Positions 1 through 25,652 are shown, counted from the stretch's first letter. The stretch: 64,000 nt of DNA from Spirochaetia bacterium (GCA_963666985.2 CAXXIA010000002.1:1632001-1696000); one strand, 5' to 3'. Program-made: numbers and translations. The notes: generated by a model from the sequence alone, not told the origin.

Positions 1-389
1 TTCGCAACCCAATGATCCGGATAGGTATACACATTTAACTCGAAGTAGTGTCGATAATGACCGAGGATACCCCGACATTTTTCGCAAAAAACGCGGGCTC
101 CCTCGTTGTCGGTATCCGGCAGAAGAATGGAAATATTCCCCTGTTTATCCCATGCAACTCGATCTACGGATCTGATGGAATGGAAAATTGCGATAAGGAG
201 TTCATTAAAAATGACCTCTTCTTTGAGTATAAAATCTAAAACAACCATAGAAAACGGATTCCCGAATCGATTTGACCTAACCCGTTCGTGATTGACGAGG
301 ACTCGAAACTCTTCAGGTGAAAGAATAATCCCCGTTTCCGGGAACTGAAGACCATGCGCGGCCGATTTTTTTATCTTTGAGGCTATCAT
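1..389 (-). CDS. Partial CDS running off the left edge: degenerate GGDEF-like domain, possibly the N-terminus of a second sugar transferase
   Basis: Not in the ORF track. Manual translation from ATG at 389 is open to base 1: MIASKIKKSAAHGLQFPETGIILSPEEFRVLVNHERVRSNRFGNPFSMVVLDF...IRSVDRVAWDKQGNISILLPDTDNEGARVF...YTYPDHWVA. It aligns by eye with the N-terminus of 9643..10818 and with 11043..11525. Confidence 0.75.
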   Translation of the reverse strand, partial: MIASKIKKSAAHGLQFPETGIILSPEEFRVLVNHERVRSNRFGNPFSMVVLDFILKEEVIFNELLIAIFHSIRSVDRVAWDKQGNISILLPDTDNEGARVFCEKCRGILGHYRHYFELNVYTYPDHWVA

Positions 390-517
390 TCTTTTTAACC
401 TTGTTTGGGAAGTCCTCTAATTAACCGATATCAATACTCAAGCCCAATAAGGCTCTCAGAAAATTACGATATTGAAAATATCGCACTATGGACCAACTAT
501 CAGACACTTGATGGAAA

Positions 518-1558
518 TTAATGCTGCTTTTCTTCTATTTCGCTCAGGATCCCTTTCGACGGCTTCCTGCGGATCAGCGCCCGCCGGGCCTTTACCCAAA
601 ATTCACAGATATAAACAATAATCATTATTTGGACTATTGAGATTAAAAAGGAAGAGAAGACATCATTGGAAAAGCCGCCGAAAACAAAAGCTAGAGATTT
701 TTTAATCAACCCGCCGATTATTGTATGAAAGGCTAGAAGCGGGATTGCATAGCGATTGATCAGCCTTGTTAAGCTGGTCGGTTTAAGGCTTCTGGAGGCA
801 ATGATTACAGTATAAATACCGAAAAGCGACGCAGGAATAAGGATCATGACTTTTCCCGCTTCATGATAATATAAATCTAATCGGCCGTTTGAAAACGCAA
901 GAAATATTGATATGAGAAAGAATGGAATCAATAAATGTTCCTCAATTTTCAACAATCCGGGCGATTCTTTTGAATTGTAGATCGCACCTAAGTGAAAATA
1001 AAACAGCCCGATAAAGGCAATATCGATACTCCACGGTAATGCGAATTTGAATTTAAAAAGATATATCCCAAAAATGGTCAGCAACAAAAAAACAATTGTA
1101 TTTATCAGCGCTCCAAGTTGAAGCTTTTCGAATAACCAATAGAATTCATTCATTAGAAAAAGACAGGGTAAAAACCACATAGGTATTCCCCATTCCATAT
1201 ATTTCGGGCCACCCTGAGCGTAAAATATACCTATTACGTTTTTTATTACCCTCTCACAACTTGTAATCCCTCCCGACAGCCATCCCAAAGAAAGCCATTT
1301 AAGAAATAAAATTGCAGCGAATATAAAATAGGGAAGAACAAGTCGGTGAATCTTCTTCCGTGTAAAAGTCGCAAATGATGATTCTCTTTTGCAGTTAAAA
1401 ACAACACCGCTAATAAAAAAGAACAAGGGAATATGAAAAGAATATACATAGTGAAAAACCGGATTCTGAATGTGATGGCCCCAAATCACGCAAAAAATGC
1501 CGATTGCGCGCGCAGTATCAATGTATTGCAGTCTATCCTGCTGAGTTATTTGATTCAT
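518..1558 (-). CDS. Acyltransferase-3 family membrane O-acyltransferase
   Basis: RLQYIDTARAIGIFCVIWGH, YSFHIPLFFFISG and WFLPCLF motifs; many transmembrane segments; starts 14 nt after the NRPS-PKS stop. Confidence 0.85.
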   Translation of the reverse strand: MNQITQQDRLQYIDTARAIGIFCVIWGHHIQNPVFHYVYSFHIPLFFFISGVVFNCKRESSFATFTRKKIHRLVLPYFIFAAILFLKWLSLGWLSGGITSCERVIKNVIGIFYAQGGPKYMEWGIPMWFLPCLFLMNEFYWLFEKLQLGALINTIVFLLLTIFGIYLFKFKFALPWSIDIAFIGLFYFHLGAIYNSKESPGLLKIEEHLLIPFFLISIFLAFSNGRLDLYYHEAGKVMILIPASLFGIYTVIIASRSLKPTSLTRLINRYAIPLLAFHTIIGGLIKKSLAFVFGGFSNDVFSSFLISIVQIMIIVYICEFWVKARRALIRRKPSKGILSEIEEKQH

Positions 1559-1572
1559 TGTTGCTGTGTTTC

Positions 1573-4500
1573 CTAAATTGCGTTGTTTTCTAAAGCCTGT
1601 TTTATTTTATTAGCCGTCTCTTCGGCATAAGGCGCTTTCAGGATTTCCAAATGTGTCCCCGGTGTATTTTCAATAAACAAGTTATCTCCGAAATACTCAG
1701 CCCAGCCATACTTGGGATCAAAATAGAATCCGGGCTTATTCTGCTCTCCAATTGCTTTTATTAGCAATGTTTTTCCTTGATACTTATATTTGTGAGAAAT
1801 ATTATTTTTTTCGAATTGTTTGGTGGCAACTTGGTAAACTCGAATTCTTTGCAGAAGATTCATATCATTCTCTGTTTGTGTATTATGCTTCAGACTATCG
1901 ATTTTTTCCTTGATGGCTTTTAGGGTGGCAGGAACTCCCCTCTTAAAACTTTTTTTAATTTGATTCATCAATTTCTCAATTGGCTTTCGCTTGATTGCCG
2001 AAAGAAGTAATGTGTCAAGTATAATCAGTAATTCCACCTCTTGTCCGGCTTCCTTAAGTTTCTTTGCCACATCATATGCCACAACCCCGCCGAAAGATAA
2101 ACCGATGATGGAAACAGGTCTTCCCTGACTATGCTGTCGGATAATATTACAATAATCGGAAGCAAATGCTTCAATATTCCATTCGTCCTGACCTTGATCC
2201 CCAATAAGCAGATTTACTTCCCTGGGATGGTATGTAGCATAGCATTTTGCAATATCGGCCAAATGAACCGCTAATTCATGGTACATCTGAACACCAATGA
2301 CAAAATAGAAAAGCCGATCTGCAGAAGATTTATTGATTTCGATAACATTCTTTAATTCATATTCCGGTTGAGAATGAAGAAGCTCATAATTTTCCGCGTT
2401 TCTGGATAAACTTCCCAACAATCCTCTTAAGATATGATTACAATCTATAAAATTCGTTTGCAGAACATCGCCCTGCTCCGCTTCGGAGTTAATGTAACTG
2501 AGTAATTTCAAGGTTCCATTATCTTCACGGACATCCAGGTACAGTGGATTTTTCTCCCAAATTCGCGGGTTGAATGAATATTCAAACTCAAGCCCCGGAA
2601 AGTCCAAGTCACCTTCTTTATAGGCGGCACTATTATTAATGACAAAATCAGCTTGCGGTATTCTATCCCCTAATTCCACTCGTAAACTTTCTATATCAAC
2701 CAAATGATCATAAGCATTTAAAAAAGCCGTTTGTGTTGCCTTCACAATATCTAGAAAACTACTTTTAGTTGTAAGGTCCAAATTCAACAAAACAAGATTG
2801 GCACAGTTCCCGATCAAGTCGTGTTTGTTAACCCATAACTGACCGGCGATTGGAACTCCAATGGTAATGTTTGATCGTCCGAATGTATCTCTCAAAATGG
2901 AGTACATCATCGATACCATCAAAATAAACACGCTGTAGTTTGTTGTTGCGCTTACGTTCTTTAACTGACGGTACACATCACCGTCTATTGAAAACTCTCT
3001 ATACCTTGTCTTAATTGTTGAGCAGGAACCTATCTTAATAATTGGCTGCACGGTTTTTGCTCTGAATTGATCAAAACGCTCATTCCAATAATTTATTATG
3101 CCTTGATAAGTTTCTTCTTCTTTTCGACTTTTCAAGAAATGTACATAATCATGGAAATCGAATACCGTAGTTTGGGACTTGGATTCGACCCCGAGGGTAT
3201 ACGCCTCGGACAATTTTTTTAAAATAATATCGAAGGACCATCCGTCACATATGGATCTGTGATACAGAAGAAGTACGATCCATTCATCTCTTGTTTTTCG
3301 TAGGATATGAACTCTGATCAACGGACCGTCGGTAAGATTGAAGGGCGATTGGTGTTCATGTAAAAGAAGATCGTTATAGAACGCATCCTGTGTTTTTTCG
3401 GGAGATTCCCTCAGATCATGAAATTCATATAACGGAAAGAAATTTTTGCGAACGCGAAATCCTGTTCCCTCTTGTGTATAGACCGCATGCAATATTTCAT
3501 TATTGCTGATTACCTTGTTGAAAGAATCGGTAAATCGATCCTTGTCAAAATCACCTTTGAAAAACAATCTAACCGAATCGATATATAAGCAGGAACGTGT
3601 TTCGTCTTTGCATTCTTGCCATATCGATATTTGGGCGTCGGTGGCCGGAATTTCATAATTCCCGAGATTTTTTCTTTCAAGTATTTCATTCTCTGAAATA
3701 GATACTTCGACATTTCGTGAAGGATTTAAATTCTTCTTGTGAGTATCGATATATTCAAAAAGAAGCCTGATATTGGGGTATTCTTGGAGTAACTGGCCAA
3801 AGGTTACGTTAACCTTAAATTCTTTACTAACCCGATATGCAATCTGAGTTAATAAAAGAGAATCCATCCCCATTTCCATAAAGGTAGATTCTTCATCGAA
3901 GTCATCAAGGGAAAACCCGGAGGTCTCTTCAAAAAGAGAAACGAGTTTCTCAACGCTTCCGGAGGTCTTATCCTCCGTCAATTCCTCGGACGCTCCCGTT
4001 GAGAATCCGTTTTCACGCTCCCCGTCGTTATCACCTGTTTCCATCACCTTAATAACAACAGGATCAACCCAATAACTTTTCCGATCAAACTGATATGTGG
4101 GAATAGGAATCTTCCTTCTTATTTCATTCTGGTAGAACGATTCCCAATCTATGGAATATCCGTAAAGCCAGAGCTGGCCAACGGCTCTTAAGACCGCCGT
4201 ATATTCGGCATTATTCTCCGCTTTAGAATCCATGGAAGAAATAATTCCCCGCGCTTTATTCGGTTGAAGATGCTGTCGGGTAAGTGTCGCAAGTGTATTC
4301 CGTGGGCCAACTTCCAAGAAAACAGCATTCTCTCTTTCGGAAAGGTATTGAATTGCATTGGAAAAAAGCACCGGGTTTTTAACGTGATTACCCCAATAAG
4401 ACGGTTCCGTTAATTCTTCTGAAACCGCTCTGCCCAGAACCGTAGAGACAATAGGAATCTGAGGCGTCCGTAAAGAAACCTTGGCCACCTCTTCCGTAAA

Positions 4501-7500
4501 AACAGGAACAACCGGTTCCATCATCTCCGAATGAAAAGCATGAGAGGTATGAAGAAGACTGTGCGGAATCTCTTCTTTCTCCAGAGTCACGATAACTCCG
4601 TTTATGGCCTCATCCGGTCCCGATAAAACACAGAGATTTGGACTATTAACCGCCGCAAGCTGAATGGATTCGGATAAATACTTCTCCACCTCTGCAACCG
4701 GCGCCTTCACGGAAAGCATACATCCGCCGGGCATCTCTTTGACTAATCGACCTCGGGCGGCTACAAGAGTCAGAGCTTCTTCTAAGGTAAATACACCGGA
4801 AAGACAGGCACATACAAACTCACCAATGCTGTGCCCAACCAGAATTGACGGCTTTATTCCCCAAGACATCAGGAGCATGGATAAAGCATACTCAATCACA
4901 AAAATAGCAGGCTGAGTAAAAAATGTATCCTTTAATGCTTCATAAGAGGCTTTTTCATCTTGTGAATCAGGATAAACAACCGTCCGAAGATCTCGACCAA
5001 GAAGATTCTCCAGAAAATCACAGCACTGATCGACAGCTTGTTTGAAGATAGGCTCTCCCGCATAAAGCTGTTTTCCCATATTGATGTATTGCGATCCCTG
5101 TCCGGGAAACATAAAGACGATTTCAGGCTCTTTCTCCAAACACGTTCGCGATCCTGTTGTTAACGGCGACCTCTTGCCGAATGCCTCCTGAGGATTTACA
5201 TCATCAGGAACAACAAGAAATCTCCTTTCGGAAAAACCTCTCCGCCCCGTCTGAAGAGTATAGGCCGCATCGGCTTTGACATTGGCTTTTTCAGCCGATA
5301 AAAAATGCCCCATCTTGGCTGTTACTTCCTCTAAGCTTGAAGAAGTTTTCGCAGACAGAAGAAACAATTGAACGGGCCGGGAAGGGCCTGATTCGTTATA
5401 GACTGGAGCTTCCTTTACAACAGCATGAACGTTTGTTCCGCCGAAACCGAAACTTGAAACGGCCGCAATTCTTTTTTTCCCGCCTCTTTTCCAAGCAGTC
5501 CTTTTATTAACAACCCAAAACGGACTGCTTGGAAAATCAATTTGCGGATTCTGAGATTTATAATTAAGCGTTGCGGGGATCTCCTCATGATAAAGACAGA
5601 GCGCCGCCTTGATTAAACCGGTAACTCCAGATGCAATCGTTGGGTGACCGATATTTCCCTTTATGGATCCAATTCCGCAAAATTGTGTCTTGTCCGTTTG
5701 CTTCCTGAATGCTTTAGTCAATGCTTCGATTTCTATGGGATCACCTATCGGCGTAGCCGTCCCATGAGCTTCAATGTAGCCGATATCTTCACTCACTACA
5801 TTTGCTTCGGCTTGAGCCCTTTCTATCACATCGGATTGTCCGGAAACACTCGGAGCAAGAAAACTGATCTTTTGTGATCCGTCGTTGTTTTTCGCGGATC
5901 CGATAATCGTGGCGTAAATCGTATCATTATCTTCCAAGGCTTCTTCCAGCCTTTTCAGCACAACAACACCAACACCATCGCAAAACATCGTTCCGGATGC
6001 CTCGGCGTCAAAGGGGCGGCAATGACCGTCTTTGGAAAAGGTTCCGCTCGGTTGATACAGGAATCCCCTTCTTTGAGGAATCCCTATATCGGAACCTCCG
6101 GCTATGGCGATATCACATTCATAATCCCTTAATGCCCGAAAGGCCAAATCCACAGCAAGAAGACTCGTTGAACAGCCAGTGTTTACGCTTACACCCGGTC
6201 CGGTTAAGTCAAGGGCATAGCACGTTCTTGTAGCGATATAATCCTTTTGGTTCCCATACTCAACGGTAAGATTGCCTACGGTATCAAGTAAATCTTTATG
6301 TCCGATTAAATTGACTGAGTAGTAGTGATTATCTCCGACTCCCGCGAAAGCGCCTATCGTGCCCGGATACGACTCCGAATCATAGCCGGCATGTTCCAGC
6401 GCCTTCCATGCCTCTTCAAGAAAAACCCGCTGCTGGGGGTCCATTACTTTTGCTTCCAGAGGAGAAACCCCAAAGAAAGAGGCATCAAAAAGATCTGCGT
6501 TATTTACGATACCTCTTGCAAGAATGTAATTCGGATTGTCCAGGAGATCTTCGTCGATACCCGGGCTCAATTGATCACGGGTAAAACGCGTAATTGACTC
6601 AACCTCGTTTATAATATTTTGCCAAAGTTCATCAATTGAATCGGCTCCCGGAAAACGGCCGGACATACCGATAATTGCGATTCCTTCGATATTATTGTGA
6701 TGCTTTTTGGAATAAAGATGTTTCTTTAACGACGAATTCCTTGCATTGCCGTCAAGCAGATCGGCAAATTGAGCTATCGTCGGATATTGAAATATTCTGA
6801 GGACCTGATAATCGGTACCAAAAGTGTCGTTTATTCTCGAAATCAGCTGGATTGCCAGAAGAGAAGATCCCCCAACTTCGAAAAAGCTGTCGTCAATTCC
6901 AATTCGGTCAAGATCAAGCTGTTCCTGCCAGAGACCTACGAGCTTTTTCTCCGTTTCACTCCTCGGGTTAATATAGGGAGTGGAAATATCCGGACGTGTT
7001 TGAACGGGTTTCGGTAATAATTTTCTATCCAGTTTACCATTGGAACTAAGCGGAAATTCATCTATACGTACATAGTGGCTCGGCACCATATACTCTGGGA
7101 GTTTCTGCCTGAGATGATCTTTGTATATTGAGATTGGGACGGATTTTTCCGTATTGGTTTTAACATATCCAACAAGACGTTTGAAACCCGGAACATCTTC
7201 CCTTAAAATCACAACCGCCTGATCCACAATCTCAAGTTCTTCAAGGCAAGATTCAATTTCTTCCAGTTCTACACGGAAGCCGCTGATTTTTACTTGTGAA
7301 TCAATCCTGCCCAGATATTCCACCGCACCATCGTCCCTGATCTGAGCCAAATCTCCCGTTTTATAGAATCTTATACAGCACCCTTGTGCATCCGCTTGCG
7401 TTATGAATTTTTCCGCCGTCAGTTCGGGCTTATTGATATATCCTCTCGCAACACCTATACCTGAAATATACAGCTCACCGCTTTCCCCTCTCTTAACCTC

Positions 7501-8529
7501 ATTACCGTTTTCGTCATGAATCGTAATATTGATATTGGAAATCGGAAAACCAATGGGCACACGGGAAAGATTTTTATCAGGACGACAATGCCAGCTGGTT
7601 ACATCAACGGCAGCTTCGGTAGGACCATATAGATTGTATAAATCGCCCTTACATAAATCAAAAAATCGATTATGAACGGCAACGTCCAAAGCCTCCCCGC
7701 TACAAATGACAAACCGAAGGGAATCGGAACGCTCCATTCTTTGTGATTCAAGAAATATCCGAAGCATAGAGGGAACGAAATGAACTATTGTTACGTTCTC
7801 CTCATCGATTAAATTAAGCAGATATTCAGGATCTTTATGTCCCTCGGGACGGGCAATTACCAATCGGGCGCCGATCATAAGCGGCCAAAAGAACTCCCAT
7901 ACGGATACATCAAATGAATACGGAGTTTTTTGAAGAACCGTATCCTCTTGTGTCATCTGAAATTCAGACTGCATCCACAGCAATCGGTTAACAATGCCGT
8001 CGTGCTGGTTCATAACGCCTTTAGGCATTCCCGTTGAACCGGAGGTATAAATTAAATACGCCAAATTTTCAGGAGTAACGGAGACTTCCGGATTTTCAAT
8101 GGCCGCCTCAGTCGGATCTAAATATTCACCAATACTGATAAAACGTATGGAAGATGTTATTTTCTCTTTAAATTTTATTTGCCCCAAGACAAGCAAAGCA
8201 CAGCTTTCTTCCAGCATATAATGAATTCGTTTTTCAGGCAGTGACGGATCTATCGGCAAATAAGCACCGCCTGCTTTGAGAATAGCAAGAAGAGCTATGA
8301 CCATCTCAAAAGATCTTTCCGCACAGACTCCGACGATTATATCTGCTTGCACACCAGCACGAATTAAATCTCGGGCGAGTATATTGGCTCTGAGATTCAT
8401 TTCAAAATAACTGAGAGATTGCTTTTCAAATTTCAGGGCTATTTGGCTGGGAAATCTGCTCGCCTGCTCTTCAATATAATGATGTAAACACTTTTCCCGA
8501 ATAAATTTATCATTCCCCGTGGCCGACAT
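1573..8529 (-). CDS. Hybrid NRPS-type I PKS, A-PCP-KS-AT-ACP-C*-TE (2318 aa)
   Basis: A: YTSGSTGMPKG, FDVSVWEF, SGEAL, NLYGPTE, YKTGD, NGKLDR. PCP: FFEVGGSSL. KS: NTGCSTS, EAHGT, NIGH. AT: FPGQGSQY, GHSIG, HAFHS. ACP: GMDSL. C-like: HRSICDG. TE: GLSFG and PGTHLEIL. Confidence 0.95.
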   Translation of the reverse strand: MSATGNDKFIREKCLHHYIEEQASRFPSQIALKFEKQSLSYFEMNLRANILARDLIRAGVQADIIVGVCAERSFEMVIALLAILKAGGAYLPIDPSLPEKRIHYMLEESCALLVLGQIKFKEKITSSIRFISIGEYLDPTEAAIENPEVSVTPENLAYLIYTSGSTGMPKGVMNQHDGIVNRLLWMQSEFQMTQEDTVLQKTPYSFDVSVWEFFWPLMIGARLVIARPEGHKDPEYLLNLIDEENVTIVHFVPSMLRIFLESQRMERSDSLRFVICSGEALDVAVHNRFFDLCKGDLYNLYGPTEAAVDVTSWHCRPDKNLSRVPIGFPISNINITIHDENGNEVKRGESGELYISGIGVARGYINKPELTAEKFITQADAQGCCIRFYKTGDLAQIRDDGAVEYLGRIDSQVKISGFRVELEEIESCLEELEIVDQAVVILREDVPGFKRLVGYVKTNTEKSVPISIYKDHLRQKLPEYMVPSHYVRIDEFPLSSNGKLDRKLLPKPVQTRPDISTPYINPRSETEKKLVGLWQEQLDLDRIGIDDSFFEVGGSSLLAIQLISRINDTFGTDYQVLRIFQYPTIAQFADLLDGNARNSSLKKHLYSKKHHNNIEGIAIIGMSGRFPGADSIDELWQNIINEVESITRFTRDQLSPGIDEDLLDNPNYILARGIVNNADLFDASFFGVSPLEAKVMDPQQRVFLEEAWKALEHAGYDSESYPGTIGAFAGVGDNHYYSVNLIGHKDLLDTVGNLTVEYGNQKDYIATRTCYALDLTGPGVSVNTGCSTSLLAVDLAFRALRDYECDIAIAGGSDIGIPQRRGFLYQPSGTFSKDGHCRPFDAEASGTMFCDGVGVVVLKRLEEALEDNDTIYATIIGSAKNNDGSQKISFLAPSVSGQSDVIERAQAEANVVSEDIGYIEAHGTATPIGDPIEIEALTKAFRKQTDKTQFCGIGSIKGNIGHPTIASGVTGLIKAALCLYHEEIPATLNYKSQNPQIDFPSSPFWVVNKRTAWKRGGKKRIAAVSSFGFGGTNVHAVVKEAPVYNESGPSRPVQLFLLSAKTSSSLEEVTAKMGHFLSAEKANVKADAAYTLQTGRRGFSERRFLVVPDDVNPQEAFGKRSPLTTGSRTCLEKEPEIVFMFPGQGSQYINMGKQLYAGEPIFKQAVDQCCDFLENLLGRDLRTVVYPDSQDEKASYEALKDTFFTQPAIFVIEYALSMLLMSWGIKPSILVGHSIGEFVCACLSGVFTLEEALTLVAARGRLVKEMPGGCMLSVKAPVAEVEKYLSESIQLAAVNSPNLCVLSGPDEAINGVIVTLEKEEIPHSLLHTSHAFHSEMMEPVVPVFTEEVAKVSLRTPQIPIVSTVLGRAVSEELTEPSYWGNHVKNPVLFSNAIQYLSERENAVFLEVGPRNTLATLTRQHLQPNKARGIISSMDSKAENNAEYTAVLRAVGQLWLYGYSIDWESFYQNEIRRKIPIPTYQFDRKSYWVDPVVIKVMETGDNDGERENGFSTGASEELTEDKTSGSVEKLVSLFEETSGFSLDDFDEESTFMEMGMDSLLLTQIAYRVSKEFKVNVTFGQLLQEYPNIRLLFEYIDTHKKNLNPSRNVEVSISENEILERKNLGNYEIPATDAQISIWQECKDETRSCLYIDSVRLFFKGDFDKDRFTDSFNKVISNNEILHAVYTQEGTGFRVRKNFFPLYEFHDLRESPEKTQDAFYNDLLLHEHQSPFNLTDGPLIRVHILRKTRDEWIVLLLYHRSICDGWSFDIILKKLSEAYTLGVESKSQTTVFDFHDYVHFLKSRKEEETYQGIINYWNERFDQFRAKTVQPIIKIGSCSTIKTRYREFSIDGDVYRQLKNVSATTNYSVFILMVSMMYSILRDTFGRSNITIGVPIAGQLWVNKHDLIGNCANLVLLNLDLTTKSSFLDIVKATQTAFLNAYDHLVDIESLRVELGDRIPQADFVINNSAAYKEGDLDFPGLEFEYSFNPRIWEKNPLYLDVREDNGTLKLLSYINSEAEQGDVLQTNFIDCNHILRGLLGSLSRNAENYELLHSQPEYELKNVIEINKSSADRLFYFVIGVQMYHELAVHLADIAKCYATYHPREVNLLIGDQGQDEWNIEAFASDYCNIIRQHSQGRPVSIIGLSFGGVVAYDVAKKLKEAGQEVELLIILDTLLLSAIKRKPIEKLMNQIKKSFKRGVPATLKAIKEKIDSLKHNTQTENDMNLLQRIRVYQVATKQFEKNNISHKYKYQGKTLLIKAIGEQNKPGFYFDPKYGWAEYFGDNLFIENTPGTHLEILKAPYAEETANKIKQALENNAI

Positions 8530-8543
8530 AAAAAGACCTCTTG

Positions 8544-9476
8544 TTAACTAAAAACATCACTTTGTAAAAATTTGATTATGCTGTCTTGGTCCATCACACC
8601 ATGCCCGCCGCGAAGTTTCAACCACCTTACCCGATAGCCTAGACTTACAGCCTTTTCCGCCATTAATTTATTTCCCGAATAGAGCCCTAAAGCATCCTGT
8701 TTCCCACAGGAAATATAAACGCTGTTTTCTTTCGGCGCGGTTCTCATCGTTTGGAAAATGTTATACCGATTCCAGTCGTCTTCAGTCGTTAAATAGCGTT
8801 TTTGAATGGATAAAACCGATTGGGCGCCATCCGTCCAGAGTTCTTTACGCAACACAATGTTTTTTATTTTTTCTCTTATCGTATTTCCGCCGTTCCTTTT
8901 CAGAAATCCATTAATTTCTTCATCTGTTGCGGTAAATGGAATGGGATAAATTCCTGCGGAAATCAAGATGGCGGAATTAAAGAAATCTGGATGATTGAAA
9001 AAGAGATACGAAGCACTCGTCCCGCCCATTGAAAAGCCCATTATAATTCTTTGATGATTCTTCCACCCCAGTTTTGACTCTATTTCCGGAATAACATCTT
9101 GAATTAAACGCTGTCCATAATCATTCTGCGGATCCGTAGGATTGGGTATGCACATAGTTTCCGGACCCGCCGAAAGCGATACAACCGCAATATTTTTACT
9201 TGTTGTTTTAAAATATTGATCATAATAACCCATCTCGGAATACCATGAGTCTTCGTTTCCGCCCTGGCCGTGCAGGTAATAGAAAACAAATTCCGGAGGA
9301 GTATGCTCCTCATTACCATAAAGCAAAACAACAGCACGAAAAGAATGTAATTCCATTCGTTCCATCTCAACTCGTTCTCCGCTCGTATTTTCGAAAAAAG
9401 CCTCCGCCTTTTGCCTTGGGATACAACCCGTGATGAACAATATCAACAGTAAAAAGGGAAGACTTCCTTTCTTCAT
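8544..9476 (-). CDS. Putative lipoprotein alpha/beta-hydrolase (esterase family)
   Basis: YYLHGQGG, nucleophile elbow GFSMGG, CGKQD and GGHG motifs; lipobox-like LFITGC; GGAGAGG RBS ahead of ATG 9476; ends 14 nt before the NRPS-PKS start. Confidence 0.8.
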   Translation of the reverse strand: MKKGSLPFLLLILFITGCIPRQKAEAFFENTSGERVEMERMELHSFRAVVLLYGNEEHTPPEFVFYYLHGQGGNEDSWYSEMGYYDQYFKTTSKNIAVVSLSAGPETMCIPNPTDPQNDYGQRLIQDVIPEIESKLGWKNHQRIIMGFSMGGTSASYLFFNHPDFFNSAILISAGIYPIPFTATDEEINGFLKRNGGNTIREKIKNIVLRKELWTDGAQSVLSIQKRYLTTEDDWNRYNIFQTMRTAPKENSVYISCGKQDALGLYSGNKLMAEKAVSLGYRVRWLKLRGGHGVMDQDSIIKFLQSDVFS

Positions 9477-9642
9477 ATTACCTCTCCGCAAAATCAACAA
9501 GACCCAATCAAAGCCAAATCGTAACGTTTCCTCTAATTTTGACCGCTGACTGTTTACGGCCTTGCAGCATCGCCGACTGTCTTTAACTCTATCACAAATC
9601 TCCGGCGCATCACCAGCAACAGACTATAATTACAAGAGGTTG

Positions 9643-10818
9643 TTAGTTTGGGTTAACATTATTGGAGCGCACATTTTCATTCGTTTCATTTAATTTGGAT
9701 TCGGCGGAATGCCGACGTTTCGCTTTTTGATGAACATAAGAAACAAAATGTCCGATCATCACGGGAACCGTTTTCAGAATAATTCCAAGGTCTTTCCAAA
9801 AAGAAAGATTTTCTCCATATCTGATATCCAATCGAATCATTTCCTTGAACGTCAGAGTATGCTTTCCACCAACCTGCCATGAACCCGTTAATCCCGGAAC
9901 GATATCGAATCGTTTTTTGTGCCAGTGAAGATACAGCTCGGCTTCATCGGGAAGGCACGGACGAGGGCCAACAAGGCTCATATCACCGCCCAGAACATTA
10001 AAAAGCTGAGGAATCTCATCCAAACCCATGGCTCGAAAGAAACCGCCACCGGGAATGAGATGCGGATCCCAATAATCGGTACCCATCGGTGTATTGCCAT
10101 CACGAATGAAACTTAACAAATCGTTATTTGCTTCCTCTTTATTACCATCGAGCTTCATCGTTCGAAATTTAAGAATTTTTATAATACGTCCGCCAAGACC
10201 GACCCGCTCTTCATGCTGAAAAATTGGTCCGGAAGACACACAGATAATGTAGAGAGGAATAAAAAGGAAAAGGGGGAACGAAACAACCAAGCCTAAAACG
10301 CTTACAAAGACATCAAGGTATCTCTTCCATCGCGGAGGTTTCTTGCAAAACATATCCGCAAGTTTGGCATCGTAGGTAGAGTAGTACTCAGGTTCCTCTT
10401 CATCGTCGTCCACAACCATTGTGATATTGCTTATTCTGGGATACATGCTCAAGCCGACGGATTTAACCAATTTAAAATCCGCAGTGGAGTCATGAACATT
10501 TTTAATAAATGCTTGAGCCCCGCTTATGGTTGTATCGGGCAGAAGAATGCCGATTTTTGAGTCCGAATGCCACCCCGCGTAATCGGTAATACGCATGTTT
10601 ATAAATATTGTTGCGAGAAAACGGCGAAACGTATAAAGAGTAACGGCATCAAAGTCAATTTCAATAAAAACCAAACAAAAACGACTTTTGGTTCGATCGG
10701 CCCGCATTCTTTCGTAACGTATGAGCTGGTGGAAGGCGTCGCGTCTAAGCGCGCCTTCCTGGTGGGTGTGCGTTACTTGAAAAGCATTAAGGGGAGTCCA
10801 TCTCGTTTTCTTGCCCAC
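9643..10818 (-). CDS. Priming sugar-phosphate transferase (bacterial sugar transferase domain) with N-terminal degenerate GGDEF-like domain
   Basis: C-terminal KRYLDV, KFRTM, LDEIPQLFNVLGGDMSLVGPRP and PGLTG motifs; N-terminal ERMRADR...RITD-YAGWH-SDSKI-GILLPDT. Confidence 0.9.
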   Translation of the reverse strand: MGKKTRWTPLNAFQVTHTHQEGALRRDAFHQLIRYERMRADRTKSRFCLVFIEIDFDAVTLYTFRRFLATIFINMRITDYAGWHSDSKIGILLPDTTISGAQAFIKNVHDSTADFKLVKSVGLSMYPRISNITMVVDDDEEEPEYYSTYDAKLADMFCKKPPRWKRYLDVFVSVLGLVVSFPLFLFIPLYIICVSSGPIFQHEERVGLGGRIIKILKFRTMKLDGNKEEANNDLLSFIRDGNTPMGTDYWDPHLIPGGGFFRAMGLDEIPQLFNVLGGDMSLVGPRPCLPDEAELYLHWHKKRFDIVPGLTGSWQVGGKHTLTFKEMIRLDIRYGENLSFWKDLGIILKTVPVMIGHFVSYVHQKAKRRHSAESKLNETNENVRSNNVNPN

Positions 10819-10940
10819 AATACCCAGTATAGAACGAATTACGGACTATAAATAGTCGGCCGCGACTCTTTTAATATTGTGACGATCCTCCTTGACTTCG
10901 TAAGAATTTCATGAATGAGGCCGATTTCCTTACCGTCTCA

Positions 10941-10969
10941 TTGACATGCGCAGATGAAGTAGATAACTT
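10941..10969 (+). promoter_or_regulatory. Candidate sigma70 promoter for the 11043-14314 unit
   Basis: TTGACA-N17-TAACTT upstream of ATG 11043; the -10 match is weak. Confidence 0.4.
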
Positions 10970-11042
10970 TATTCATAGATAGTCGCTTTTTTTTTCCACA
11001 AGTTTTTTTTTTGAAATAAAGCGCGTTACTTTAAGGTTCATA

Positions 11043-11525
11043 ATGAACGGGAAGAATCGTAAACTCCTAGCTCACCTCAATGCTCTCGGCCTGTATACGG
11101 AGAAAGAATTCTATCGTATTCATGATTATGAGAAACTCCGCTCCGACAGAAACGGTATGCAATTCTCTTATATTATTCTCAATCTCGATACTAAGGCTAT
11201 TCCTTTGCGATCAGTCAAAAAACTGATAATGGGCATCCTCGGACAACTCCGCATTATCGACCATATCGGTTTGAGCGGGACGGATCGTATCGGTATTCTC
11301 CTTCCCGGTACCGAAAAAAGCGGCGCTTTGGGTTTCCTGAAGAATATTAATCATCTCCTTTCGGAGTTCCCTGGAATTTCCGTTGATGACATTATAACCT
11401 ATCCGGAACCCCAAGCTCTGATGACGGCAGTATCGGCATCCGTGGCTTCCGCAGCCATAGTGGAATCGTCCGATACCGCTGAAGCGGAGGAAGTCGTCAT
11501 TATCCCCTTTGAAATAAGCAAGTAG
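11043..11525 (+). CDS. Stand-alone degenerate GGDEF-like domain protein (RxxD retained)
   Basis: EKLRSDRNGMQFSYIILNLD...LRIID-HIGLS-GTDRI-GILLPGT; paralogous to the N-terminus of the divergent sugar transferase. Confidence 0.7.
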   Translation: MNGKNRKLLAHLNALGLYTEKEFYRIHDYEKLRSDRNGMQFSYIILNLDTKAIPLRSVKKLIMGILGQLRIIDHIGLSGTDRIGILLPGTEKSGALGFLKNINHLLSEFPGISVDDIITYPEPQALMTAVSASVASAAIVESSDTAEAEEVVIIPFEISK

Positions 11526-11577: not shown

Positions 11578-12819
11578 ATGGCCGTAATGAATAAACTTCC
11601 CACTCTCACAGAACCGATTGAAACACCGGATAAACCAAAAAGTATTATAGATATCCTTCTTAAATACCTCATAATGCTCTGGCGTTACCGCGTGTTGATG
11701 GGAATTATCACAGCCTCGGGAACCTTCGTCGTTTTTACATTCTGCCTGCTTACCAAACTGCTGCCGCCGGAGATCAATCCTATGCCGAATCAATATACGG
11801 CCCAAGCGGTTCTCCTTGTCGATCGAGACAGTTCCGGCGGAGGGATCGGTTCCATTTTAGCCAGTTACGGTATGAATCTCGGCTTAGGATCATCTTCCGG
11901 CGGTAATAATATCGACCTGATTCTGACCATCTTGGACAGCCGTCCTTTTCTCGACCTTTTGGTGGAAGAATTTGATATTATCAACGAGAGAAGAATCAAA
12001 CTCGACCCAAAAACGAATTCCCGTCTAATAATTCAGAACATGTCCTCTCATTGGTATGATAAAACTTCAAATACGCTTACTTTAAGCTGTACCCACACAG
12101 ATCCGGAGTATGCGGCCGATTTCGTTAACAGACAGATTGAACTTCTCGAACAATGGTATACGCAATTCGGCGGACAGCGCGCCGAAAAGGATCTTCACCT
12201 CCTCGAGGTTCAGCTGGCCAACCAGGAAGGCCAAATAGCCCGGCTTGAAGATGAAATTAAAAAATTTCAACAGGAAAACAACACCATTTCGATCGAAGAT
12301 TTGGCCGCTCTTCAAGCGAAAATGATTGGCGATCTTCGAACCCAAATAACCCAGATTGATTTACAAATTCAAACGGCCCAGCAGTTTTCACAAGCCGCGA
12401 TTGAAAGCGAAAGCCTCATCAACTTAAGACTCCAGCGCAACAATCTGAACTATATGATTTCACAGTTGGAAAAAGGATATTCCGGCGGTGTAAAAATCAT
12501 GCCTTCGGCGGAAGAACTTCCGGACCTGGCCATCAAATATACAAAACTCCGTCAGGAAGCGGAGATTCAAGCAACTGTCTACCAAAAACTTCGGGAACAA
12601 TACGAAATAGCCAATCTCAATCAGGAACGAGCCGAAGCGTTCTCCGTGATGGAATATGCGGAAGTTCCCGAGTTAAAAGACTCTCCCCGCCGTTCGGTGA
12701 TTGTTGTCGGAGGCTTCTTCGTTTCTCTGCTCATCAGCATCCTCGTCGCATTCATTCTGGAATATTCGGGTCAAGTCATCGATATAATCAAGGAGAAAAT
12801 CAAGAATGAACAATCGTAA
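11578..12819 (+). CDS. Polysaccharide co-polymerase / chain-length determinant (Wzz/GumC-like, no kinase domain)
   Basis: Two TM helices flanking a long coiled-coil region; Pro-rich AEVPELKDSPRR before TM2; no Walker A motif. Confidence 0.85.
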   Translation: MAVMNKLPTLTEPIETPDKPKSIIDILLKYLIMLWRYRVLMGIITASGTFVVFTFCLLTKLLPPEINPMPNQYTAQAVLLVDRDSSGGGIGSILASYGMNLGLGSSSGGNNIDLILTILDSRPFLDLLVEEFDIINERRIKLDPKTNSRLIIQNMSSHWYDKTSNTLTLSCTHTDPEYAADFVNRQIELLEQWYTQFGGQRAEKDLHLLEVQLANQEGQIARLEDEIKKFQQENNTISIEDLAALQAKMIGDLRTQITQIDLQIQTAQQFSQAAIESESLINLRLQRNNLNYMISQLEKGYSGGVKIMPSAEELPDLAIKYTKLRQEAEIQATVYQKLREQYEIANLNQERAEAFSVMEYAEVPELKDSPRRSVIVVGGFFVSLLISILVAFILEYSGQVIDIIKEKIKNEQS

Positions 12820-14314
12820 ACCACTATTACTTCTCTCCCTGATACTCCTCGGGGGTTTTGCCTGGGGGCAGGCTACTCCCGGAACCGACGAACAGGCCAA
12901 TTCGCCCAGCAGCGACCAAATGACGGCCATGGCTCTCGCCGATTCAACTTATCCGGTTACGCCCGGCGACCAATACAGCCTCTCTTTCTCCTTTCGCGGT
13001 CAGATGCAAGACGTTCCCATTTCCGTAACCACCGATTACCGTCTCGATCTTGGAATTTTCGGATCGGTTGAAGCCGACGGCTTAACATTCCCTGAACTTA
13101 AAACTCTCGCCGAACAGACGGTCAACGGGTTCTATCCGGGAAGCCACCCTCAGCTCACCATTGAAAGCATCGGTGAATTCCAAGTCAGTATCTTCATGGA
13201 AGGCAAAGGACCCGTTTCCATCAATGCCAGCGGATTAACCCGGCTTAAGGACGTCATCGACAATCTTGTTCCCGATGATGAATACTCTCAGCGGAAAATC
13301 CTCATTACAAACCGTTCCGGTGAGAGTTCCTATTACGACTACTATCGGTATCTTTACCGTCACGAAGAACGATCTAATCCCCACCTTCAGCCGGGCCAAA
13401 GAGTTCATTTCTCTTATTCGGATCTTGTTGTTGAGATTACCGGCGCGGTCCGGGAACCAAAGACAATCTCCATAATTGCCCGGGATACGATGGACTCAAT
13501 CATTTCCTATGTCGGAGGATTCACACAGGAAGCCGACCGATCCCGTATTCAAAAATGGCAAATCGTCGAGGGCGAGCAGATTTACAGTCTCCACGAATGG
13601 GGCGACAAGGAACTGCTGACCGCACGTTCAAGCCATCTGCGGATTAACGTCCCCGCCCGGGGAGAAACCCGTAAGGTTATGACCGTCGAAATCAATACGC
13701 CGGCGATAGATAATGACGATGATGATGTAACAATGTACGACGAAGTTCAGGGCGAGTCGGTTACGGGTGAATACATTCGTCTTACAATACCGGTATTCGA
13801 AGGTATGCTGGTTTCAGACGTACTGGAAGAAGTAAAACCCTACTTCACGCATATGACCGATCTTCGTTTCAGCAGTATTGTCCGCGAAGGCGAAGAAGAG
13901 CCCCTTCACGTTAATCTGGAAGATGTTCTCAACACCTCGGGCAGTCCTTATAACATAACGGTTAAGCCTAACGACATTCTGGGCATCCCAGCACGAATGG
14001 TATTCGTTTCGGTCTCGGGCGGCGTCTATGTTCCCGGCCGTTATTACTACACACCGATGAGAACCGCCGATTATTACATCACCATGGCCGGGGGTATCGA
14101 TCCCGAACAAAATTCCCATAGAAACATCGTGGTATATGATGAAACGGGAAACCAGAAAGACCGAAAGGCGTTAATAAAACCGGGCGACAATATCGTCGTC
14201 GTTCAAGACAACATGGTTTTTCAGTTTAACGAGAAATTTGCGGCCGTTACCACTGGACTGACATTCATCACGACTTTGACTCTTCTGATAACAACACTTG
14301 CCGGCGGACTTTAG
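12806..14314 (+). CDS. Polysaccharide export protein (Wza/OPX-like, SLBB repeats)
   Basis: Signal peptide; YPVTPGD poly-export motif; repeated VxGxVxxP / AGG / PGD SLBB patterns; C-terminal hydrophobic helix; overlaps the co-polymerase stop. Confidence 0.85.
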   Translation: MNNRKPLLLLSLILLGGFAWGQATPGTDEQANSPSSDQMTAMALADSTYPVTPGDQYSLSFSFRGQMQDVPISVTTDYRLDLGIFGSVEADGLTFPELKTLAEQTVNGFYPGSHPQLTIESIGEFQVSIFMEGKGPVSINASGLTRLKDVIDNLVPDDEYSQRKILITNRSGESSYYDYYRYLYRHEERSNPHLQPGQRVHFSYSDLVVEITGAVREPKTISIIARDTMDSIISYVGGFTQEADRSRIQKWQIVEGEQIYSLHEWGDKELLTARSSHLRINVPARGETRKVMTVEINTPAIDNDDDDVTMYDEVQGESVTGEYIRLTIPVFEGMLVSDVLEEVKPYFTHMTDLRFSSIVREGEEEPLHVNLEDVLNTSGSPYNITVKPNDILGIPARMVFVSVSGGVYVPGRYYYTPMRTADYYITMAGGIDPEQNSHRNIVVYDETGNQKDRKALIKPGDNIVVVQDNMVFQFNEKFAAVTTGLTFITTLTLLITTLAGGL

Positions 14315-15101: not shown

Positions 15102-15737
15102 TTGAAGATACTTGATATTCAAGAACTGGAAATTAGAGACATCAAAGTAATACGGTTCGCCAGATTCTGCGACAATCGCGGCTACTTCACCGAACCATTT
15201 CGCCGAAGTCAATTCGATCAGGAAGTTCCCTTTCTAAAAGAACAATCCTTCGTTCAGGCCAATGAAAGCTATTCGGTTGCCGGTGTGGTCCGCGGACTCC
15301 ATTTTCAATGGAATCCCTATATGGGAAAACTGGTACGAACCGTCCAGGGACGCATGGTTGATCTCTTCCTTGATATACGAAAAGGTTCCCCAACTTACGG
15401 TAAGGCGGCGGCCTATGATGTGAAAGGAAATCCCGCGGACGAGTATGCCGAATGGATCTGGATTCCACCGGGATTCGCTCACGGAAATTTCTTTACGGAA
15501 AATACAATGATTGAATATTTCTGTACGGGCGAATACAGTCCGGGGTGTGAAGCCGGGATTTCTCCTCTTTCAAAAGATATCGACTGGTCACTCTGTGAGG
15601 ATTCCTTGAAAAATGAATTCGATTCTCTTACCTCTGGTAATGCCGTAATGTCGGAGAAAGATCGAAACGGCCTTTCCCTCGCCCAATGGACATCGGATGA
15701 AAGATCCGATAATTTTCTTTACGAGAATCTTAAATGA
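15102..15737 (+). CDS. rmlC: dTDP-4-dehydrorhamnose 3,5-epimerase family
   Basis: DNRGYF, RGLHFQ, KLVRTVQG, DIRKGSPTYG, WIPPGFAHG; TTG start after AGGAGA. Confidence 0.88.
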   Translation: MKILDIQELEIRDIKVIRFARFCDNRGYFTEPFRRSQFDQEVPFLKEQSFVQANESYSVAGVVRGLHFQWNPYMGKLVRTVQGRMVDLFLDIRKGSPTYGKAAAYDVKGNPADEYAEWIWIPPGFAHGNFFTENTMIEYFCTGEYSPGCEAGISPLSKDIDWSLCEDSLKNEFDSLTSGNAVMSEKDRNGLSLAQWTSDERSDNFLYENLK

Positions 15738-16459
15738 TCAACACGGCGCAAATACTTATTACAGGCGGCTCCGGACTCCTCGGCGGAGAATTAAAAAAAA
15801 ATCTTCCCGAAGCACTTTTCCCCACTCATGAAGAATTCAACGTGGAAAACCCCGACCGCATGGATTCCTACATCGCCGGCCGGGATATCAAACTGATCCT
15901 CCATGCCGCCGCTTTTACTTCCCCTCCCCGCATTAATGAGAATCCTGAAAACGCCTTAAAAGCAAACATCATCGGAACGGCCAACGTCACCGGTCTCTGC
16001 ATGCGGCGCAACATCCGGCTGGTTTACATCAGTACGGATTACGTTTTTTCAGGAGACAAAGGATCTTATGCCGAGAACGATCCGGTCCTTCCCGTGAATA
16101 AATATGCCTGGTCCAAACTCGGCGGCGAATGCGCCGTTCAAATGCACGACGACTCCATGATTATCAGAACATCTTTCGGTGAAAATCAATTTCCGTACGA
16201 AAAGGCTTTTATCGATCAATGGACCAGTCGGCAGTCCGTTACGGAAGTTGCAAAAAAAATTACATCGTTACTGCAGCATACGGATTATCGCGGTGTTATC
16301 CATGTCGGCGGTCCGCGAAGAACCGTGTATGAATATGCTTTATCCGTTGCTCAAGGAAAAAAAATCGGCGAACTCTCCGTTAAGGATGTTTCCTTCACGG
16401 TCCCCGTTGATACATCATTCGATATCAGTCGTTTCCTGGAACTTACGAACCGGGATTAA
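15734..16459 (+). CDS. rmlD: dTDP-4-dehydrorhamnose reductase-like SDR
   Basis: GGSGLLG, HAAAFT, ISTDYVFSG, YAWSK; shorter than typical RmlD. Confidence 0.72.
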   Translation: MINTAQILITGGSGLLGGELKKNLPEALFPTHEEFNVENPDRMDSYIAGRDIKLILHAAAFTSPPRINENPENALKANIIGTANVTGLCMRRNIRLVYISTDYVFSGDKGSYAENDPVLPVNKYAWSKLGGECAVQMHDDSMIIRTSFGENQFPYEKAFIDQWTSRQSVTEVAKKITSLLQHTDYRGVIHVGGPRRTVYEYALSVAQGKKIGELSVKDVSFTVPVDTSFDISRFLELTNRD

Positions 16460-16473
16460 TAAAGGAAGTCATT

Positions 16474-17427
16474 ATGAAAATACTCGTCGCCGGCGGAGCC
16501 GGATACATTGGAAGCATGCTCGTACCTTATCTCCTCGATCATGGCTATGAGGTTGAAGTCATCGACCTTCTTTGGTTTGGAAACTATCTTCCCGATTCTG
16601 TTAAAGTCGTTAAAAAGGATCTATTCGAATGCCGTGTTGAAGATTTTCAGGGATTCGATCAGGTTATCTTCCTTGCGGGGTTGTCGAACGATCCCATGGC
16701 GGAATTTAATCCATCGATGAATTTCGTCCATAACGGCGCTTTACCTTCCTACTTGGCCTACCTGGCGAAACTGGCCGGAGTAAAACGCTTCATTTACGGA
16801 TCCTCCTGTTCCGTATACGGATATACCGTAAATGAGCTTTATGATGAGGAAGCACCTGTAATTTCCGGTTATCCGTATGGAATTTCCAAACTCCAGGGAG
16901 AACGAGGTGTTCTCCAGATGAACGATGAAGGCTTTTCCACCATCGCGTTAAGAAAGGGAACCGTCAGCGGATACAGCCCGCGCATGCGATTGGATTTGAT
17001 TGTTAACACCATGTATAAAAGCGCTATAAAAGACGGAGTAATAACCGTTAACAATCCATCGATTTGGCGGCCGATTTTGGATATCCGGGATGCCGTCAGA
17101 GGATATCTTCGCGCCGTACAGGCGGATTATTCCATCCATGGCGTATTCAATATCACTTCGGATAACTACACCGTCGGACAGGTCGGAGATTTGGTTAAAG
17201 AAGAACTCGAAGAACTCGGTATCTCCGTGAAGATTAATATTAAATCCATTCAGGATTTCCGGAACTATAAAGTTACAAACGCAAAAGCCAGAACCATTTT
17301 GGGGTATGAAGCGAAGTTCACAATTTCGGATATCGTCCGGGAACTTCACAATAAAAAAGAAGAATTCTCCGATTTCGACGATGATCGATTCTATAACATT
17401 AGACAATTTAAAAAACTGGGTCTGTAG
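16474..17427 (+). CDS. NAD-dependent epimerase/dehydratase (extended SDR)
   Basis: GGAGYIG, SSCSVYG, YGISK. Confidence 0.85.
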   Translation: MKILVAGGAGYIGSMLVPYLLDHGYEVEVIDLLWFGNYLPDSVKVVKKDLFECRVEDFQGFDQVIFLAGLSNDPMAEFNPSMNFVHNGALPSYLAYLAKLAGVKRFIYGSSCSVYGYTVNELYDEEAPVISGYPYGISKLQGERGVLQMNDEGFSTIALRKGTVSGYSPRMRLDLIVNTMYKSAIKDGVITVNNPSIWRPILDIRDAVRGYLRAVQADYSIHGVFNITSDNYTVGQVGDLVKEELEELGISVKINIKSIQDFRNYKVTNAKARTILGYEAKFTISDIVRELHNKKEEFSDFDDDRFYNIRQFKKLGL

Positions 17428-17430
17428 ATT

Positions 17431-18387
17431 ATGGCAAAATACGATATCAGCATCATCGTCGTTGCCTGGAACGTTAAAGAGCTCCTTATCGAGTGTTTTG
17501 ACGCCTTACGGGCCTCTACAGATACGCTGAAAAAGCAAATCCTTTTAGTTGATAACGGCTCGGTAGACGGTTCCGCGGATTTTATCGAAGAGCATTATCC
17601 CGAAGTAACAGTCATTCGAAGCCCGACGAACCTTGGTTTTATTCGAGCAAACAACCTTGCATACAAACAAGCCGAAGGCGAATACATCCTGATGCTGAAT
17701 TCCGATGCATTTGTATATCCGGATTCACTACAGACCGTTTACGACTTTATGGAAAAAACTCCCGAATGCGGAGTAACCGGTGCCAGACTTATCGGGCGTG
17801 ACGGCGTACTTCAGCCTTCCGCCCGATACTTTCCGACACCATTTAAATTGTTTTTACAAAAATGCGGATTAGACGGAAAGTTTCCTTTCGTCGGCCCGTT
17901 GGATGATCTTTCCTGGGATCATCAGTCGATCCGAGAATGTGACTGGGTTGTTGGTTGCTTTCTTCTTACACGGAAAAGGCTCGTAGATCAAATGGGATTC
18001 TTTCTCCGCGAAGACTACTTTATGTATAACGATGATAATGATCTTTGCTTAAGGATAAAAAAACTTGGATATAAAGTTTTCTTTATACCTGTAGATGTTA
18101 TCCATGTCGGCGGAGCGAATGTTATAAAAATGAAACAGACGAGAGGTACGGATAATCAGGTTTTAGAATACCAAATTGAAAGCCAAATTATCTATTTTCG
18201 AAAAAATTATTCATTGTTCAAAACATTTTCCAATATATTTTTTACCCAACTGTTTTACATGGCCGTTCTTTTAAAATGCTTACTTACACTTCGCTTCCGT
18301 AGAATTTCTACAGATATTTGGCCTAAAGTTCTGTTGGTAAATCGCATTTTTAGAAAAACCGGTTTCGGGCAATATTCTATTCATTAA
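17431..18387 (+). CDS. Glycosyltransferase family 2 (WbbL-like rhamnosyltransferase type)
   Basis: SIIVVAWN, VDNGSVD, NLGFIRANN, LNSDA, DWVVGCF, FMYNDDNDLC. Confidence 0.88.
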   Translation: MAKYDISIIVVAWNVKELLIECFDALRASTDTLKKQILLVDNGSVDGSADFIEEHYPEVTVIRSPTNLGFIRANNLAYKQAEGEYILMLNSDAFVYPDSLQTVYDFMEKTPECGVTGARLIGRDGVLQPSARYFPTPFKLFLQKCGLDGKFPFVGPLDDLSWDHQSIRECDWVVGCFLLTRKRLVDQMGFFLREDYFMYNDDNDLCLRIKKLGYKVFFIPVDVIHVGGANVIKMKQTRGTDNQVLEYQIESQIIYFRKNYSLFKTFSNIFFTQLFYMAVLLKCLLTLRFRRISTDIWPKVLLVNRIFRKTGFGQYSIH

Positions 18388-25609: not shown

Positions 25610-25652
25610 GCTCTTTACTCCTTGCATGTAAAGTAATCTATCCCTTAGGTAG

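Follow-up and report, generated by a model that had tools for sequence, protein, structure and literature searches.

A three-gene unit between two sugar transferases

The stretch of DNA analyzed here (64,000 nt from a Spirochaetia bacterium, GCA_963666985.2 CAXXIA010000002.1:1632001-1696000; referred to as the window) carries a unit of three minus-strand genes encoding an esterase (8544–9476, Pfam PF00756), a 2318-aa hybrid nonribosomal peptide synthetase–polyketide synthase (NRPS-PKS) megasynthase (1573–8529), and a 346-aa acyltransferase-3 (AT3) protein (518–1558, Acyl_transf_3, PF01757), as assigned by open reading frame calling and Pfam searches. The three frames are co-oriented and separated by gaps of 14 nt each, confirming the preliminary description of this DNA, and purine-rich tracts resembling ribosome-binding sites are present upstream. 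The flanks proved to be related to sugar transferases as described: a sugar (initiating) transferase (9643–10818, minus strand, Pfam) is the first gene of an apparent minus-strand operon and lies 166 nt before the esterase, and a second sugar transferase, of which only the start is contained in the window (1–389, minus strand), begins at 389, 128 nt after the AT3 gene. Two sugar transferases thus enclose the unit, and all of these genes point the same way. Over positions 1–11500, zero letter differences were seen between two public assemblies of a single sample that may be the source of the window.

The megasynthase has the domain order A-T-KS-AT-ACP-C-TE (adenylation, first carrier, ketosynthase, acyltransferase, acyl carrier protein, condensation, and thioesterase domains, all encoded on the minus strand) and was the sole such protein found in the host genome. 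The A domain (7000–8490; Pfam and motif reading) has the serine-type pocket DVWHISLVDK, which fits the DVWHxSLxDK of EntF-type serine-activating A domains; Txo2, Txo1, and EntF, which we take to be serine-specific, rank high among its solved relatives. The protein starts with this domain, and neither a starter C nor a formyltransferase domain was found before it by Pfam. Both the first carrier (6742–6954) and the ACP (3721–3945) have kept the attachment serine (Pfam and alignment), the KS (5410–6690; motifs and tree) retains Cys-His-His and shows the signature GHPT, and the AT domain (4210–5124; Pfam and motifs) has the malonyl-type motifs GHSIG and HAFH. No Pfam match to a ketoreductase (KR), dehydratase (DH), or enoylreductase (ER) was obtained, so that the pocket, the AT motifs, and the missing reductive domains all stand as initially read. 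In the C domain (2380–3654; alignment), Arg replaces the second catalytic His, the canonical HHxxxDG is absent, and no functional carrier follows; the third carrier, located between C and TE in relatives, is a serine-less remnant. The TE (1597–2298; Pfam and alignment) contains a Ser nucleophile together with Asp and His. From the altered C domain, the decayed third carrier, and the intact TE triad, a two-carrier machine is expected that would extend one serine with one malonyl unit and release the product by its TE. The single serine and single malonyl extension proposed earlier thus receive additional sequence-based support.

The N-terminus of the esterase reads as a signal peptide followed by a lipobox-like Cys; the protein is predicted to be a lipoprotein, and its site of action would therefore be expected to be extracytoplasmic, apart from the thioester. 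Its Ser-Asp-His triad (S149/D261/H292) is conserved in a 77-row alignment, the predicted structure adopts an alpha/beta-hydrolase fold (predicted local distance difference test score 91), and a full HMMER search gave 723 relatives. The proteins of solved structure closest to it in sequence are hydrolases of the carbohydrate and small-ester kinds; weaker structural relatives include the capsule acetyltransferase SacC and corynebacterial PS1, both presumably proteins with transferase roles. The AT3 protein scores over the PF01757 cut-off, is a polytopic membrane protein, and has kept the R-X10-H motif. It is a stand-alone AT3 that is weakly NolL-like (20.5 bits, not reaching the NolL equivalog cut-off of 425). 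It gave no SGNH domain match, and the neighboring gene encodes an alpha/beta-hydrolase, not an SGNH protein.

The GHPT-KS family

A KS family was defined by a pattern built on the unusual KS signature common to the query and two other proteins. This pattern retrieved 82 stretches in GTDB genomes, 80 of them with flanks, and a serine-clade pattern retrieved 14 in metagenomes. Family counts were made on six-frame translations after removal of three duplicates (L064, L110, and L115, of L108, L086, and L058, respectively) and two short rows (L098, L099). The family KSs are 61–68% identical to the query KS and score 604–670 bits versus ≤477 bits for other KSs from 24 of those genomes; they form one 96-row clade with a support of 100 (FastTree), apart from other KSs. 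Owing to its long end branch, the longest of the family tree (0.35), the query KS cannot be positioned within the clade with certainty. The 92 non-redundant loci comprise 60 of the Gly type, 26 of the Ser type, and 6 that could not be read. Most hosts are Acidobacteriota; the others include Myxococcota, Thermodesulfobacteriota, Pseudomonadota, and Fibrobacterota, together with two further spirochaetes.

The customary layout is A-T-KS-AT-T-C-T-TE. The nucleophile is Cys in 47 and Ser in 14 of the 61 TEs that could be read. The Ser-TE lineages reach the two-carrier form in three ways: C-T is deleted (L062, L076), the ACP serine is lost and C is altered (L069, L108 and kin), or C is altered and the third carrier is lost, as in the query. 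Literature searches, in text outside subscription journals and supplements, gave no description of the GHPT-KS family, which is widespread and without a known product. The preliminary description knew of no spirochaete example; this holds for described systems in these searches, and undescribed ones exist (L026, L059, L149–L152, L169).

Several other features of the family were observed. In most of the Cys-TEs inspected (L021, L026, L034, L106, L107, and others), the catalytic His normally present close to the C-terminus is missing, and genes for an exosortase, a FemAB/GNAT protein, or a DegT aminotransferase are frequent at these loci. A phosphopantetheinyl transferase (PPTase), a membrane-anchored periplasmic alpha/beta-hydrolase, and the megasynthase form a conserved proteobacterial cassette (L048, L058, L069, L077, L105, L109, L116); that of Curvibacter gracilis is located outside glycan loci, near AurF-like and 2OG-Fe oxygenase genes. 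A nitroreductase-family gene lies directly upstream of several Ser-loading members (L075, L112, L117, L035, L062). In L039, L041, L043, L050, L065, L067, L089, and L110, the megasynthase is spread over at least two frames, either by a real split or by sequencing error.

Proposed decoration of the exopolysaccharide and its glycan context

Decoration of the exopolysaccharide (EPS), either by the TE directly or by way of the AT3, is the leading reading, and we consider it slightly more probable than all others combined. From the domains, motifs, gene order, and family context we infer the substrates, product, acceptor, and transfer steps of the direct route, which we put forward tentatively and at less than even confidence. 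The megasynthase would activate L-serine and load it onto the first carrier, and the KS would extend the seryl group once with malonyl to yield a 4-amino-5-hydroxy-3-oxopentanoyl thioester on the ACP, with the altered C domain probably serving as a spacer. At the cytoplasmic side, the Ser-TE would then transfer this acyl unit to a sugar acceptor (a lipid-linked repeat unit or a nucleotide sugar) belonging to the Wzx/Wzy exopolysaccharide, and the polymer would consequently bear a nitrogen-containing acyl group. The AT3 would most likely be an ordinary acyl-CoA-dependent O-acyltransferase whose substrate is either this polymer or the acyl unit. Outside the membrane, acyl groups may be trimmed or edited by the lipoprotein esterase. 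Points in favor of this route are the location of the unit between the sugar transferases, the convergence of Ser-TE lineages on two carriers, the acyl-CoA donors of the AT3s studied so far, the presence of an AT3 without a KS in the EPS locus of G019, and the kinship of the esterase to carbohydrate and small-ester hydrolases.

The genomic setting of the family is consistent with a role in glycan decoration. Core glycan genes were found in 45 of the 92 family loci versus 19 of 241 20-kb tiles of the host genome, and at least two kinds of glycan gene in 29 of 92 versus 6 of 241. Within the taxonomic family of the window, a type I KS lies 14–46 kb from a Wzy-like gene in four of the six genomes carrying that gene; any such KS was present in 3 of 32 genomes without it. 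The KSs near the Wzy-like gene belong to a different clade; C-A-T genes, asparagine-synthase-like genes, and genes for AT3s and exported hydrolases accompany them. As Wzy-linked loci thus contain different KS clades, the EPS locus appears to have a slot that is filled by varying assembly lines. A second KS clade was seen in the spirochaete genomes G014, G017, G022, G033, and G355 (L149–L152, L169, L174, L176–L178, L203–L204), with the layout A-T-KS-AT-T-TE or KS-AT-T-TE and mostly a Cys-TE; likewise accompanied by a C-A-T NRPS, asparagine-synthase-like genes, an AT3, and exported hydrolases, it occurs in EPS loci, several of them homologous to that of the query. Variovorax and Aliiroseovarius plasmids carry further, aminotransferase-containing hybrids (A-T-KS-AT-T-AMT-C-A-T; L016:14323-34860 and L017:14980-25982), which lie together with a PPTase inside EPS loci; L017, a Rhodobacteral EPS-locus hybrid, and L016 both fall outside the KS clade of the query.

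A number of points weigh against the proposed decoration. Loci of the family served to train the glycan profiles, which thus favor it; the Acidobacteria loci in the glycan counts do not represent independent cases; and in the same genomes, type I PKSs other than those of the family lie near glycan genes in 5 of 14 cases. For these three reasons, the glycan link is regarded as real but not special to the family. Core glycan genes were detected by profile in 5 of the 14 Ser-TE loci. This count rises to 7 of 14 if the Pfam-detected glycosyltransferase family 4 (GT4) gene in L076 and the downstream genes of L108/L064 are added, so that about half of the Ser-TE loci remain without glycan genes. At the loci of Curvibacter gracilis and Teredinibacter, zero or one weak glycan match was obtained within ~30 kb. 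A location of the homologues mostly outside glycan loci had been named at the outset as an argument against glycan decoration; such a location was found in part, namely for this half of the Ser-TE loci. On the chemical side, a free gamma-amino-beta-keto thioester should cyclize to a tetramate before transfer, an N-protecting domain is absent from the megasynthase, and no amino-sugar aminotransferase was detected by Pfam among the locus genes scanned. Finally, neither an Sfp-type or EntD-type PPTase nor an MbtH protein was found in the host genome (93% complete), where the search gave only an AcpS-type enzyme. A PPTase was not found left of the window either, where the preliminary description had suggested looking for one; at 93% completeness, it may be missing merely from the assembly.

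Since the unprotected amine should readily close a ring and half of the Ser-TE loci lie outside glycan clusters, the release of a free small molecule deserves attention as an alternative, although we consider it unlikely. The TE, or spontaneous ring closure, would release either 5-(hydroxymethyl)pyrrolidine-2,4-dione or its lactone, or else the aminoketone formed by decarboxylation; the AT3 and the hydrolase would acylate or deacylate this product or be unrelated to it, and the glycan setting would reflect a shared variable island. The intact Ser-Asp-His triad of the TE and the free amine on the intermediate fit such a release, and tetramate formation from an amino acid and malonyl is known chemistry of the reutericyclin and mutanocyclin synthases. 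The Curvibacter loci, moreover, are compact PPTase–hydrolase–megasynthase cassettes beside regulators. In Collimonas, the diffusible carenaemin depends on a hybrid PKS-NRPS locus as well as on a Wzy-pathway locus, according to the accessible part of the report (PMC8313283). The repeated placement within EPS operons across phyla argues against a free product, as does the query operon itself, in which no dedicated exporter or tailoring enzyme was found by Pfam.

Association with AT3 proteins and exported hydrolases

The preliminary description had proposed that the assembled unit is handed to the adjacent AT3. In such a relay, the carrier-bound or TE-bound seryl-ketide would pass to the AT3 and across the membrane onto the polysaccharide, either by the AT3 alone or by the lipoprotein hydrolase in place of the SGNH domain of OafA/OatA. 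We regard this form of decoration as doubtful. It was evaluated in a survey with a broadened AT3 profile and a Pfam check of 38 of the 54 flagged membrane/hydrolase candidates (most of the others being annotated already), which together contributed one Gly-locus fragment, L060. An AT3 was present in 8 of 26 Ser-loading loci versus 1 of 60 Gly-loading loci, and an exported hydrolase in 9 of 26 versus 0 of 60; one or the other was found in 11 of the 14 Ser-TE loci versus 1 of the 47 Cys-TE loci. In five cases (the query, L062, the fragment L086, L108, and L116), no more than ~100 nt separate the AT3 gene from the megasynthase, and two of these AT3s are AT3-SGNH fusions. The synteny comparison suggested earlier supports both the glycan-locus setting and the recurrence of AT3s and exported hydrolases beside Ser-type relatives. 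The esterase also offers some support for a relay: among its three closest relatives with context, two adjoin an NRPS-PKS (L169, 31%; L151, 25%), and SacC and PS1 are among its weaker structural relatives. Whether stand-alone AT3s need a partner is left open in the accessible text of a review (PMC9558356).

Against these counts stands the observation that the TE nucleophile and the presence of an AT3 or hydrolase can be compared in only three independent pairs (sign test p 0.25–1, not significant); with three contrasts, significance is out of reach. An AT3 was not seen in the fetched DNA of 18 of the 26 Ser-loading loci, and both partners occur together in just 4 of 26. The AT3s of the family loci fall into several mostly unrelated groups with only short local matches to the query AT3, and the exported hydrolases at other family loci belong to a different family from the query esterase. 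No assembly line was found near the closest relative of the esterase (41%) or near four more distant ones. Of the four nearest AT3 relatives in spirochaetes, three (L192, L193, L195) belong to glycan loci that have no NRPS-PKS at a distance of up to 10 kb, and the homologous spirochaete EPS locus of G019 contains an AT3 and lacks a KS. Furthermore, acyl-CoA rather than ACP is the supported AT3 donor in the systems studied, as given in the accessible text of the same review (PMC9558356). Given the mutually unrelated AT3s, the AT3 without KS in G019, the acyl-CoA donors, and the 18 loci without AT3, the adjacent AT3 as acceptor of the unit is unsupported, and the earlier interpretation as a whole is partly supported. 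In a more general form, a minimal NRPS-PKS family would decorate exopolysaccharides with amino-acid-ketide acyl groups, with direct transfer by the Cys-TEs and, in the Ser-TE lineages (two-carrier, Ser plus malonyl), transfer via a recruited AT3 and an exported alpha/beta-hydrolase replacing SGNH; this, too, seems rather unlikely to us.

Composition and host genome

The esterase, megasynthase, and AT3 genes have a G+C content (GC) of 38–42% versus 51% for the genome, and a KS of this kind was present in 0 of 13 same-genus genomes searched. That the line is a silent or decaying passenger, which came with a low-GC glycan island, was then deprived of its PPTase, a working C domain, and the third carrier, and yields no product any more, while both AT3s of the locus act as ordinary polysaccharide acetylators, is improbable and is considered at all because Sfp is missing: the deviating GC, the absence of such a KS from the genus sample, the lone AcpS-type enzyme without MbtH, the altered C domain, the decayed carrier, and the long KS branch would agree with it, but the 7-kb open frame, the intact A, T, KS, AT, ACP, and TE motifs, the tight 14-nt spacing, the recurrence of the same reduction in lineages retaining a PPTase, and the incomplete assembly speak against it. 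Matches to the FlaA family numbered three in the host genome and zero in 14 control genomes, which agrees with a spirochaete as host.

Other features of the locus

The DNA to the left of the window continues, after the second sugar transferase, with a GT4 gene, two GT2 genes, and a WecG-like gene. To the right of the unit, the plus strand carries a chain-length regulator-like gene (GNVR, Pfam score under the cut-off) and a Wza-like export gene (SLBB; 11578–14314, Pfam), followed by RmlC and RmlD-like genes of the rhamnose pathway with NAD-dependent epimerase and GT2 genes (15102–18387, Pfam) and by a second AT3, unrelated to that at 518–1558, with a polysaccharide pyruvyl transferase (18613–21043, Pfam) in low-GC DNA. 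The Wzx/Wzy assignment made earlier held for the Wzx-type flippase (21089–22417, plus strand), which is well supported by Pfam, and was weak for the Wzy/O-antigen-ligase-like membrane protein (22524–23924, minus strand): this protein has zero Pfam matches itself, and a 41% homologue has only a sub-threshold Wzy_C match. Features of a Wzx/Wzy-type locus, i.e., an initiating transferase, Wzx, and export and chain-length genes, are thus present. The segment 18001–22000, which contains the second AT3, the pyruvyl transferase, and Wzx, has a GC of only 28–34%, suggesting a separate acquisition.

Beside the Wzy-like gene, 23984–25732 encodes a predicted exported protein of 582 aa without a Pfam match; a lookalike is present in the EPS locus of G014 (L176:14938-16641). 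Both sugar transferases flanking the unit have a degenerate N-terminal stretch in which a likeness to GGDEF was seen by eye, and blastp clustering revealed a stand-alone 160-aa copy of this stretch at 11043–11525. At the right end of the window, the search for a second glycan locus gave only a lone WecG/TagA-family glycosyltransferase (61626–62366) amid housekeeping genes. Promoter-like sites in the window were at chance level, terminator-like sites were not clearly over it and none was listed in the operon gaps, and no RNA was listed.

Relation to known systems

In DltABCD-dependent D-alanylation and AlmEFG-dependent glycylation, an acyl group that stems from an amino acid is made ready for a surface polymer by an A domain and a carrier protein. 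The query would resemble such carrier-mediated decoration with an added polyketide step. Neither of the two systems involves a polyketide extension, and Dlt uses a membrane-bound O-acyltransferase (MBOAT) and an SGNH-like protein; the query, in contrast, lies below the DltA cut-offs, and no MBOAT was found among the locus genes scanned. WcbR and RkpA are reducing type I PKSs of capsule loci that are thought to make lipid parts and have no A domain. The query shares with them the type I PKS within a polysaccharide locus, but it lacks KR, DH, and ER and begins with an A domain. Reutericyclin and mutanocyclin synthases, encoded outside glycan operons, have a starter C domain for a fatty acyl group, a cluster acylase, and tetramate release; the query is predicted to resemble them in combining one amino acid with one malonyl extension and differs by the missing starter C. 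The use of an NRPS for the type B flagellin glycan of C. difficile, considered as a possible parallel, was not borne out, as the terms are absent from PMC5207246 and PMC5207245.

With NolL, ExoH/ExoZ, GumF/G, and OafA/OatA the query AT3 has in common that it is a PF01757 protein with R-X10-H in a glycan locus (PMC9558356, accessible text). The extracytoplasmic serine hydrolase beside it could mirror the SGNH partner of AT3-SGNH enzymes. Unlike in the query, the demonstrated donors in the described AT3 systems are acyl-CoAs, and an assembly-line donor does not appear in the accessible text (PMC9558356); the neighbor in the query, moreover, is an alpha/beta-hydrolase. The hybrid line for myxoglucamide (mxg) gives a gamma-amino acid and includes the O-acylation of a sugar, and its C domains are devoid of the second His. 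It differs in being a multi-module glycolipopeptide pathway starting from glutamate, with a C-like sugar acyltransferase and short acyl groups (both from the accessible part of PMC13638107). A Roseobacter-clade NRPS/PKS cluster reported by Martens et al. consists of four separate genes including a PPTase and has an unknown product. Like the query, it is a small and widespread NRPS plus PKS line with a glycosyltransferase neighbor and without a product, so that productless lines of this kind beside glycosyltransferases were already known (PMC4337385, in part). Compared by description only, the query differs in being one fused protein with a serine pocket, in lacking a PPTase at the locus, and in its AT3 and exported esterase (PMC4337385).

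Implications

When orphan NRPS-PKS genes occur in polysaccharide clusters, they are generally classed as secondary-metabolite clusters. The locus described here is among the simplest forms: a single amino acid would be extended once, the mass can be predicted, and the family is definable and offers natural contrasts between Gly and Ser loading and between Cys-TE and Ser-TE. The named cultured members Curvibacter gracilis and Teredinibacter waterburyi make the chemistry of the family testable. If an AT3 took a carrier-bound donor, the working rule of acyl-CoA use by AT3s would be overturned, and an assembly line feeding an AT3 and a hydrolase would provide the missing partner of some stand-alone AT3s. 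If the polymer is indeed decorated, glycan-tailoring machinery would comprise assembly lines in addition to acetyl-, succinyl-, and pyruvyl-transferases.

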